Assembly: GCA_951406725.2 (NCBI GenBank)
Contig: OX597831.1
Span: 78,182,001 to 78,246,000 of the forward strand
Source: Octopus vulgaris
Lineage: Eukaryota
Length of the DNA stretch: 64,000 bases
Direction: 5' to 3'
How positions within the stretch are numbered: position 1 is the first letter of the stretch; every line of letters begins with the position of its first letter. The notes under the pieces were generated by a model. It was not told where the DNA came from and did no database searches. It saw nothing but the letters and a program-made list of their open reading frames with translations. The position numbers and the translations under genes are program-made. Positions 1,550 through 30,870 of this stretch are shown piece by piece.

Positions 1550-1602
<53 letters not shown>

Positions 1603-1603
<1 letters not shown>

Positions 1604-1727
1604 CGCAAAAAATGTTTATTTAATTCATTTTGCGGGAAGGCTGCTTCGGCCTGGCTGTGTTCTGCCCTTACCTTCGAAACACGCATTGAGTCGAAACAGG
1701 GGCAGCTGAAGAAGGGGAATGTTCCTT
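1603..1727 (+). ncRNA. Candidate hammerhead-like ribozyme with non-canonical strand order
   Basis: TGTGT-T-CTGCCC (1656-1667), CCTTC-GAA-ACACG (1671-1683), GGGCAG-CTGAAGA (1700-1712); stem II partner GAAGG at 1636-1640; extra helix 1641-1650/1690-1699. Confidence 0.55.
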
Positions 1728-1913
1728 GCATTGCTTGTCTTGTACTCTGTTTTTTCGTTGTTAAAAAAATTCGTTTCCTTGTTTGATTTTATGTTTTCGT
1801 TTCTACGTTTATTTGTGGTGTCCTGTACTCATATATGCATGTATATATACACATAGATGTAGGTATGTACATATATGTATGCATGTATGCATATGTTTTA
1901 TTTATTAAATTGT

Positions 1914-1957
<44 letters not shown>

Positions 1958-2114: not shown

Positions 2115-2318
2115 TCCAAACATGAAAACACAAAGAGAAAACACAACAACGCGAGGATGTGGAACAAGTATAGTGTTATTGGACGCTCGCAAAAGGAAAG
2201 AAAGAAGGAGGACTTAACGTTTCGAGCGGAGCTCTTTGTCAGATACATAGGAAAAGGAAAGATCCAAGGAAGGGAAGATGGAGGAAAAAAATCGCCAACG
2301 ATACCACGCGGTCATATT

Positions 2319-5933: not shown

Positions 5934-6899
5934 AAGAGAGAGAAAGAGACAGATCAAAGTGGAGTGCAAAGTGTGAAAGGCAGAGAAATGTAGGACAGGG
6001 GGGAGAGAGAGACAGTGTTATAGAGTCGTACCAAATTTAAAGAAATACGTACTTACATACAAAACCAAAAAGGGTACGGGTGTCGCTATATATATTATAT
6101 GTAGAACAATACAAACTGGGACAAGAACGTAAAACATTTAGAAGACGATACAAAAAACACGGACGGGACATTCGAAGCCTTCAATCTTCAGTCAAGAACC
6201 GGATCATCCATATATATCCTAATACGCAACCCTGTATTTTTGCTTTGTTGTGCTTTTAACCTTTCACATTGAAATCTCTTCTGTTCTCGAGTCTTTACGC
6301 TTTAGCGTAACATTTTCAGCCATGTTTTTCCGATCAGAGGTCGTCAACGAGGTCAATGCTGACTTCTTACCGGTGTGGATAGGATCTGTGCCTGTTTCCC
6401 AGAGATCGATAAACACCTAAAACAAATATAAAATGTCCCGAATTATTGGCAAACTGAAACTGTAAGAGCCATGCGTAATTTAAGGCGAAAACTCACTAAT
6501 TTTTTAACTAAATATCTTTGGACTTGTAGCACGTATTTCCCAAAACATACAATTCATATTAAAGGTTCCGATTTCATTAATATAATATTTATCTTTCTTC
6601 ATCAATTTCTTTAACGATTTTAAATTTCTTCAAATATTTCTTGCTAAAAAAACCACAATGACTCAAAAGAACGGAGAAATTTACAGTTGGATATTGGAGG
6701 GTTTGGAATATTTATGATGACTAGAATAAGGGACCAAGGAATATTTATAACGACTAGAAAGACTTTTTTTTAATATATTGGCGACTTTAGTTTGTTCATC
6801 AAATTTCAGATATTAGAATGTTGGATTTTCTAATATATCTAAAAGTTGAAGAACAAACTAAATTTGTTTCTCCATTTTCTTATTTGTATTATATATATA

Positions 6900-6957: not shown

Positions 6958-7361
6958 GGTTGTATAAAGTCAACATAACGTGACAGTCCCGTAGAAAGAC
7001 TTACACCACCGCTATATAGCCCTAGGAAGCATCGACGCCTCCTGTTGGCCTTGACACATTCCTGTGTCCTTATATGACCAGTGAATAAATTTCACTGTAA
7101 ATCGATATATTTGCGAGGGCTTGGTAAGTATCACCGCTAGCGAGGATACGCTACCCCGGACTGACGAAGGGCAAGACCCAGAAACATGCATGTCTCCAGG
7201 TTTCTAGTTCTAGCTAGTGGAGGTGCTTACCTCCCCTTTGCAAATATAAGGACACAGGAATGTGTCAAGGCCGACAGGAGGCGTCGATGCTTCCTAGGGC
7301 TATATAGCGGTGGTGTAAGTCCCTCTACGGGACTGTCACGTTATGTTGACTTTATACAACC
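6958..7361. mobile_element. Fold-back element with 118-bp terminal inverted arms and central HHR
   Basis: 6958-7075 is the reverse complement of 7244-7361 with 3 differences; inner imperfect stem; HHR in the loop. Confidence 0.85.
7155..7200 (+). ncRNA. Minimal type I hammerhead ribozyme
   Basis: CCCGGA-CTGACGA-A-GGG-CAAGA-CCC-A-GAAA-CATGCATG-TC-TCCAGG; palindromic stem III ACATGCATGT; GUC triplet at 7192-7194. Confidence 0.75.
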
Positions 7362-13499: not shown

Positions 13500-14000
13500 A
13501 TATATAATTCCAAAACCATGGAACTAGAACGCAAGTGACCCCAATAAAAAGACGGGCCGGAAAAAACAAGGACGGGTCATTTGCAGTCTCCTCTCGTCAG
13601 TGAAGTTACCAAATTATCCTTACAGTTTCGGGCAGTTACACTTGACACTTTTCAAATCTGGCTGTTCCCAAAGAGCATTAAATTTTGGGGGAGAAAGTAA
13701 GCAAAAGTTTATGACCACAAAGGCAAAAGAACGGAGAACAGGTTACCCAAATACAAATACAAACGAGAAAATAACAACAGGTGTCTTTCGACTAATAAGA
13801 ACTCAACAAGTTAGGCTGACGTGTGTAGAGTGAAAGCTTGAAGCAGGAACACAGGAGATGAACATTAGAGATGAAAGTCAAGAGACAAGAATACAAGAGA
13901 TGCTTCACGGCCGGCAGTTGAGTCAAGAAAGAAAGATCATGCCTGACCGAACACCGGTCACGTGGAAGGAAAAATAAGAGGTAGGGAGCAGAAGGATTTT
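13500..14000 (-). mobile_element. Diverged PLE-like remnant of the permuted-HHR family
   Basis: Colinear with 877-1400 (ACAACAGGTGTCTTTCGACTAA, GTCACGTGGA); CTGACGA and GAAA on the minus strand at 13580-13670. Confidence 0.55.
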
Positions 14001-20994: not shown

Positions 20995-21265
20995 GCTGTT
21001 TTTGTCCTGTTATTACTATTATTGTTTTTTGTATTTATATTCGTGTGGCATCGTCCGTTTTTCTGTCCTAGTTTCGTATACATTCGATCCTTTTTCCAAG
21101 ATTTCTAATGCTCGTAGCTTAGTTTTTCCTTGGGGCTGGCCGGATCGGAGCGATCTCAAGATTAATCAGCCGAAATTGCGAGGATGATCCGGTTCTTGAC
21201 TGAAGATTGTGTCGTCTCTTTGAGTGTTTTGCGTTCTTGTCCCATTTTGTATTTTTATATATATT
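20995..21265 (+). mobile_element. PLE-like remnant carrying permuted hammerhead-like motif
   Basis: Motif at 21134-21206; homologous to 30575-30870 and to the reverse complement of 877-1150. Confidence 0.6.
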
Positions 21266-30469: not shown

Positions 30470-30870
30470 AGCAGCCGTCGCGGCAAGACACGTTTTTTCT
30501 CTCTTTGCCCTAAGGCATTTTTCTAACACACCAGCTCAAAGTTTTCTCGTCCTGTCGAAAGATGCCTCCTCTGTGACGTCCTGTTTTTGTTATTATTATT
30601 ATCATTATTGTTTTTACGTATTTTTGTATTCTTATTCGTGTAACATCGTCCGTTTTTCCGTCCTTGTTTTGTATACATTCGAGGCTTTCTTCCAAGGAAC
30701 CTAATGCGCTTGGCTTAGATTTTCCTTTGGAGCAATCTCAAGATTAATCAGCCGAAATTGCGAGGATGATCCGGTTCTTGACTGAAGATTGAAGGTTTCG
30801 AATGTCCCCTCGGTTTTTAGTATCGTCTTCTAAACGTTTTGCGTTCTTGTCCCAGTTTGTATTTTTTTTA
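30470..30870 (+). mobile_element. PLE-like remnant, permuted-HHR family (5' part of motif deleted)
   Basis: GCAAT-C-TCAAGA...CAGCC-GAA-ATTGC...TCTTGA-CTGAAGA at 30732-30788. Confidence 0.6.

Follow-up and report, generated by a model that had tools for sequence, protein, structure and literature searches.

A hammerhead core opened between A9 and stem II, associated with retroelement 3′ ends in the Octopus vulgaris genome

The hammerhead blocks C, G and S were defined by Eckert et al. (2023; PMC10085705), whose available text assumes that CUGAnGA and its stem II strand are inseparable, gives six permutations and validates type SGC. In that text, type SGC (HRIMA-1 and variants) is known from metatranscriptomes, with none in genomes of known organisms, a form with helix X and a 3-nt linker cleaves in vitro, during transcription, and the search pattern requires CUGAUGA(U)G and then stem II. 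Type I hammerheads of minimal form, described for Penelope-like elements and for non-LTR retrozymes (PMC4209133; bioRxiv 10.64898/2026.07.22.740005), follow, in the portions of these sources at hand, the canonical cyclic order; their stem III is minimal, and no more than one base is added after A9. The hammerheads in the accessible part of the preprint are of type I only. In addition, variants with additional helices are mentioned in the available part of PMC13725137, which cites Weinberg et al. (2015).

Layout of the window element compared with described hammerheads

The element lies in a window of 64,000 nt of Octopus vulgaris DNA, to which all positions refer, within a copy of a repeat that we call family A (Table 1). 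It shares with type SGC the order S-G-C, the 3-nt linker between stems I and II, a helix joining the ends of these stems and a full core (CUGAnGA, GAAA, A15.1-U16.1, H17 and G10.1-C11.1 are all present), and differs in the upstream position of the stem II strand and X and in the replacement of the link between A9 and G10.1 by Z and P0, whereas in type SGC stem II directly follows CUGAnGA. An intact block C, with stem II at most 1–2 nt from A9, is lacking, and the window RNA does not fit the published SGC search pattern. Since the six types presuppose, in the available text, that CUGAnGA and the stem II strand are inseparable, the opened form is none of them, and the assumption behind the six permutations is broken. 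It has neither the canonical cyclic order of types I, II and III nor a match to their covariance models, and it differs from the type I hammerheads of Penelope-like elements and retrozymes in cyclic order, stem III and the bases after A9; the shared traits, as far as those sources are available, are the partial-tandem terminal repeats of retro-repeats and a proposed role in making unit-length or circular RNA. An HDV-like or theta ribozyme was rejected by eye, as no fitting J4/2 or L3 was seen.

An earlier, sequence-only reading of this DNA had placed the reversed strand order outside types I, II and III, which stands, but the block order as such had already been described as type SGC in the available text of PMC10085705. 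We could not find in print the opened block C, the Z/P0 junction or the genomic occurrence. Indeed, neither the layout nor a non-circular hammerhead from a retrotransposon or an animal genome was reported in the full-text literature covered, which was mostly open-access and included the accessible parts of PMC10162972, PMC3088659 and PMC13159263. The expectation that standard descriptors would miss the element was borne out, since Rfam gave no gathering-score match in the window and no hammerhead among 80 weak matches at 1400–2700.

Table 1. Parts of the family A element in the window (cut site and structural roles as predicted)
Feature	Position	Strand	Remarks
Family A retro-repeat copy, 5′-truncated, non-coding	1601–1915	+	between (TA)n tracts; full unit about 760–800 nt
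Helix Z, 5′ strand remnant	1601–1602	+	5 nt in intact copies; rest here mostly (TA)n
Hairpin P0	1603–1635	+	1603–1610 pairs with 1628–1635; abuts helix Z and stem II
Stem II, 5′ strand	1636–1640	+	G10.1 = 1636; partner 1671–1675
Helix X, 5′ strand (stem I–II interaction helix)	1641–1650	+	partner 1690–1699
Block S	1656–1667	+	stem III strand, U16.1 = 1660, H17 = U1661, then stem I strand
Predicted cut, block S	between 1661 and 1662	+	hammerhead consensus; 5′-end cliff of family A copies
Block G	1671–1683	+	stem II 3′ strand, G12-A13-A14 at 1676–1678, A15.1 at 1679, stem III strand
Helix X, 3′ strand	1690–1699	+	pairing with 1641–1650 and alignment covariation
Stem I strand and CUGAnGA	1700–1712	+	C3 = 1706, A9 = 1712
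Helix Z, 3′ strand	1713–1717	+	directly after A9; not stem II
Repeat 3′ tail	1718–1915	+	ends at a fixed point before (TA)n or next unit

A check of the window sequence located every segment named in that reading at the position assigned to it, and the three core strands pair as proposed, with stems I, II (through the upstream partner) and III fully paired. The additional helix, now X, does exist and joins the ends of stems I and II, but nine of its supposed ten pairs form. The hairpin placed 3′ of the core (1713–1718 with 1722–1727) can form as well; however, the conserved partner of 1713–1717 is the strand 5′ of the upstream hairpin, with which it makes helix Z. In the window copy stem III holds one G-U pair, where many other copies have C-G, and the 1-nt spacer that most copies have between stem II and helix X is absent. 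The 5′ strand of helix Z is complete in 30 of 33 and in 29 of 32 aligned family A copies (the two sets overlap), as against the two bases kept here. The window copy is a truncated and probably impaired member of its family. Its energies give a competing fold, in which 1711–1715 is mis-registered on 1671–1675, the same stability as stem II. A better canonical pairing of the cores had been named as grounds for rejection, but the canonical pairing with 1711–1715 would use up G8 and A9. Note that pseudoknot-free folding of the window copy does not produce the hammerhead structure (z −0.83), which is to be expected where helices cross.

The same window holds five decayed or truncated copies of another repeat, family E, with the same ribozyme layout (934–1093, 6152–6209 and 13542–13674 on the minus strand, 21106–21206 and 30727–30804 on the plus strand). 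It also holds minimal type I hammerhead-like motifs in canonical order, at about 2215–2245 (minus strand), 2460–2530 (an inverted pair) and 7147–7205 (plus strand); like those of Penelope-like elements, they carry an additional A behind A9.

Upstream stem II, helices Z and P0, and covariation

Scans of this genome with the S-G-C strand order, a descriptor search that the sequence-only reading had proposed, gave 3,425, 3,183 and 1,104 matches against 161, 383 and 752 in the respective reversed controls; the first two scans exclude the stem I of family A. Fetched loci gave 197 core matches, among which 114 distinct copies had stems I and III of at least 4 bp and fell into 19 clusters. A stem II partner of at least 5 bp was found upstream in 80 of the 114 copies, in an equal control window in four and after A9 in three, and the upstream stem II occurred together with helix X in 72 copies as against three in the control. 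With the stem II strand upstream, there is no link from A9 to G10.1. Because stems I and III had been chosen for pairing and the upstream stem II was placed by best pairing, only the controls and the types of base pair count as evidence. On these, the S-G-C pattern with its covarying stems is present beyond chance, and non-circularly permuted hammerheads, which so far had come from metatranscriptomes and metagenomes, are placed in animal genomes at thousands of copies.

The bases that follow A9 directly form helix Z with the strand just 5′ of the hairpin P0, and P0 itself adjoins the stem II strand; as a rule, none of the three joints holds an unpaired base. Among the 89 copies whose stem II partner lies upstream, 44 have Z and P0 abutting in this way, compared with means of 2.6 and 8.0 in the controls. 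Judging from the sequences, stem II, P0, Z and the core could thereby form a four-way junction able to keep stem II stacked on the core, which would offer a new site for helix insertion in the hammerhead core.

For an out-of-sample test, metagenomes were scanned with a pattern made of stem I, GAAAC and CUGAnGA only, which left stem II, X, Z, P0 and the cut site of block S free. The scan gave 111 loci, with 104 matches having enough flank and 68 of them distinct. Among the 14 distinct matches with a GUH site and a stem III, 11 have the upstream stem II, 11 have X, ten have Z and P0 and nine have all of these, whereas none of the 54 other distinct matches has all helices. A scan of viral contigs with the pattern gave two loci, neither listed with a cut site and a stem III. 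An alignment of eight families, six from metagenomes and two from this genome, pairs 93.9% of the cells of the six-helix structure, with both sides changed in 20 of 34 pairs (nine of nine in helix X), a score reached by none of 500 shuffles and compared with 39–49% in slid controls; these figures lean towards the structure, as it was drawn on one of the eight sequences, which moreover are related to one another. Anchored counts and this eight-sequence subset were used because MAFFT across all families misaligned block S. Thus the hammerhead opened between A9 and stem II, with its partner upstream, held up in cross-family covariation and in the metagenome test, and the stems covary between families, the lack of covariation across genomic copies having been named beforehand as a refutation.

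Within family A, sequence divergence is 1.7–2.3% in the core, 4.3–5.6% in the 3′ flank and 27–30% in the linker between X and stem III. Shared differences avoid the core and cluster in this linker, at N7 and in one compensatory change of P0, from C-G to U-A, that marks a subfamily.

We consider it highly unlikely that the element is an ordinary type SGC hammerhead, in which the G-rich run after A9 (1714–1717) would serve as stem II and the upstream strand would be incidental or an inhibitor. A downstream stem II of 4 bp with two G-U pairs can indeed be drawn in 51 of the 114 copies, and Penelope-like hammerheads usually have an extra base behind A9, according to the available part of PMC4209133. 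However, by cluster median this option is confined to three of the 19 clusters, all of the family A lineage, and it is weaker than the upstream pairing (−4.1 against −8.7 kcal/mol). In family C no pairing is possible between the bases after A9 and stem II, a 4-bp downstream stem II occurs in none of the 14 metagenome matches with a GUH site and stem III, and in the alignment the downstream stem is 53% paired, with 63 of 500 shuffles scoring as high, which is the level of shuffled sequence. Moreover, the bases after A9 covary as helix Z instead.

Predicted cleavage and the 5′ ends of copies

Altogether, we read the element as a standard hammerhead core in an opened topology, carried in a retrotransposon 3′ region and predicted to cut after U1661, and give this reading a probability of about 0.8. 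From 5′ to 3′ the parts would follow in the order Z, P0, stem II strand, X, block S, block G, X′, stem I′ with CUGAnGA, and Z′, that is, a type SGC opened between A9 and G10.1, in which stem II, P0, Z and the core would meet in a four-way junction that takes the place of the backbone link. The chain ends would exit through Z, helix X would hold stems I and II together, and self-cleavage after U1661 would proceed by ordinary hammerhead chemistry. Within tandem transcripts, cleavage would release unit-length RNA, and the two products would remain paired with each other by helices Z, II, X and III, which in intact family A copies amount to about 25 bp; this should make it easy to re-ligate or circularise them. 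Starting from the tail, reverse transcription would run off at the cut and leave short copies starting at or just 3′ of 1662, and an uncut or re-joined template would be read through into full and more-than-unit copies. Note that unit-length or circular templates and more-than-unit insertions have been proposed for Penelope-like elements in the accessible part of PMC4209133.

The 5′ ends of family A copies were scored in 98 of the first 100 listed copies, picked by a motif 3′ of the core; the second copies of two pairs were removed and one inverted pair was kept. Ends fall in 1662–1699 in 48 of the 98 copies and in 1620–1661 in four, and their rate rises from 0.13–0.33 per base per 100 copies at risk across 1620–1661 to 2.6 in 1662–1672. 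A single TA at 1669–1670 takes 12 of the 48; when it is excluded, eight ends in 1662–1668 compare with four in 1620–1661 (p = 1.6e-4, for copies that are not fully independent). Single-site junction counts, which are ambiguous, gave seven at the cut, four at 1666, 51 at the TA and eight at a control TA. This cliff gives a hint of cleavage in vivo, and the pile-up fits reverse transcription running off cut RNA, to which stalling and microhomology may contribute.

It seems unlikely that the fold is hammerhead-derived and cleaves rarely or not at all, serving instead as a handle for the retrotransposon protein or as an exonuclease block, the pile-up then resulting from stalling of the reverse transcriptase and from TA microhomology. 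Such a role would agree with the twelve ends on one TA, and with the read-through of the site in about half of the family A copies and in all 40 of family C (the first 40 of 1,077 copies), none of which has a 5′ end within 28 nt 3′ of the cut. In addition, a cut in the 3′ UTR would part the ORF from the priming tail. Yet all catalytic bases are kept and, between families, the core varies at N7 and H17 only (the core bases being part of the search pattern), as in active hammerheads; the 5′ ends continue to 1662, beyond the last 3′ helix strand, before they drop; and a twister-like motif, seen by eye at the same place in one Naiad of the available supplement, suggests that cleavage is needed there.

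It is possible, if doubtful, that the same core is active only as a dimer, formed in tandem transcripts, in which X and III make a rod whose terminal loop docks on the basal loop of the second unit. By rough helix lengths, X and the shorter linker cannot span II and III in eight of 20 representatives unless 1–3 pairs open, the same geometric puzzle that Eckert et al. flagged for SGC in the available text (PMC10085705); the minimal hammerheads of Penelope-like elements are thought to work as dimers (PMC4209133, accessible part), and the 5′-end cliff occurs in the tandem-forming family A and is absent in family C. Against this, the linkers of family A and of the Naiad family are long enough for a monomer by the same rough geometry, and the published SGC constructs, as described in the available text of PMC10085705, cleave during transcription.

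Separately, at three loci (L356, L357 and L358) the insertion begins exactly at the predicted cut, with short pieces of the ribozyme, duplicated or inverted, in front of it, a pattern that resembles template jumps.

Carriers of the opened layout

With stems that differ and covary, the layout is found again in many repeat families of the genome, in metagenome contigs, in R2-group elements and in Naiads; its sequence, its covariation and its association with retroelement 3′ ends are established. In family A, 40 scored matches of 91–100% identity were obtained among 2,848 candidates in the 2.8-Gb genome, where the exact 22-base motif of the family occurs 881 times. The full unit holds no ORF but intron-like signals, and occurs in partial tandems and inverted pairs. 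Its 3′ ends lie at a fixed point, which in the 29 copies scored leads into (TA)n in 19, into the next unit in seven and elsewhere in three. Together with the variable 5′ truncation, these are the traits of a non-autonomous Penelope-like repeat or retrozyme. Searches for an ORF upstream of family A copies and for a coding partner found neither; a GIY-YIG search returned Neptune-type elements, without this ribozyme in the stretches examined. Families D, E and G also appear non-coding and likewise came without a partner. Stem I of family A is identical to that of the Naiad family of this genome.

At two loci (L008 and L017), in the middle of the family A unit, motifs like a splice donor, a branch point and an acceptor lie on the ribozyme strand, and related families share the donor-like motif and a CACGTG box with family A. 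In G000:C1, at 132.40–132.54 Mb, a ribozyme-bearing copy is repeated at a spacing of about 20–27 kb; these copies probably lie inside a large tandem duplication.

Naiads were reported to be without canonical hammerheads, with unexplained cores and half cores noted (Craig et al. 2021; available part of PMC8557442). By eye, five of the seven complete Naiad 3′ ends in the accessible supplement of that paper show the opened layout (Naiad_Plae, Naiad-2_Movir, Naiad_Anas, the entry preceding Naiad_Anas, and Naiad_Obim), one shows a twister-like motif and one nothing, and two further entries, whose names lie outside the accessible parts, show it as well. Naiads, as described there, share with family A the (TA)n targets, the partial tandems and the inverted truncated copies, but family A is without an ORF of its own, and a Naiad partner for it is not proven. 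In this genome there are 538 occurrences of a motif taken from the published octopus Naiad; broken reverse transcriptase frames lie upstream on the same strand at two of 30 such loci, and one of four frames from Naiad loci matched RVT_1 (E 1.3e-5, below the curated cut-off). The opened layout thus provides a testable answer to why Naiads seemed to be without hammerheads and to what their half cores are. In the accessible part of the supplement, the motif of Naiad-1_Movir, seen by eye, lies in the 3′ UTR, where the other Naiads carry the opened hammerhead. Three further entries, near parts 13 and 15 of the accessible PMC8557442 supplement, appear by eye to have type CSG order; only two sequences of this type have been published. 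Several intact Neptune-type Penelope-like ORFs of 781 aa, together with an overlapping ORF on their upstream side and a 3′ region repeated in tandem, lie at loci L346–L349, and these elements have probably been active recently; the opened ribozyme was absent from the Neptune-type elements examined. The motif of Naiad-1_Movir is presumably of the twister class.

Families B and C follow ORFs with, by eye, zinc knuckle and restriction-like endonuclease motifs, which we take to belong to R2-group elements, of the HERO clade. In family C about 75 nt of 3′ UTR separate the stop codon from the ribozyme, and relatives of the family C protein carry reverse transcriptase domains (259 matches); the search for loci related to this protein gave one weak match in prokaryote genomes and none in viral contigs. 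The protein had no match to solved structures, and Pfam gave no match for five of six frames and a weak, unrelated one for the sixth. The known ribozymes of R2-group non-LTR retrotransposons, elements under development for gene insertion, are HDV-like and lie at the 5′ end. Both are self-cleaving motifs (here a predicted one) in an element with reverse transcriptase and a restriction-like endonuclease, but here a hammerhead is predicted in the 3′ UTR, where a cut needs explaining. In metagenome contigs, six of eight upstream frames tested were ubiquitin-hydrolase (UCH) domains, and at six loci (L263, L271, L282, L303, L315 and L332) the ribozyme closely follows ORFs that end in such a domain.

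We lean somewhat towards a wider interpretation, in which a class of active hammerheads that have a four-way junction instead of the A9–G10.1 bond would be the common 3′ ribozyme of several unrelated groups of animal retroelements (Naiad Penelope-like, R2-group endonuclease-bearing, UCH-ended and non-coding parasites), would act as a nick-and-hold or self-circularising device rather than by plain cutting, and would explain the seeming lack of hammerheads in Naiads. Finally, the family B ribozyme at one locus is followed, some 35 nt further downstream, by another S-G-C-like core (L063, minus strand, about 1425–1467).
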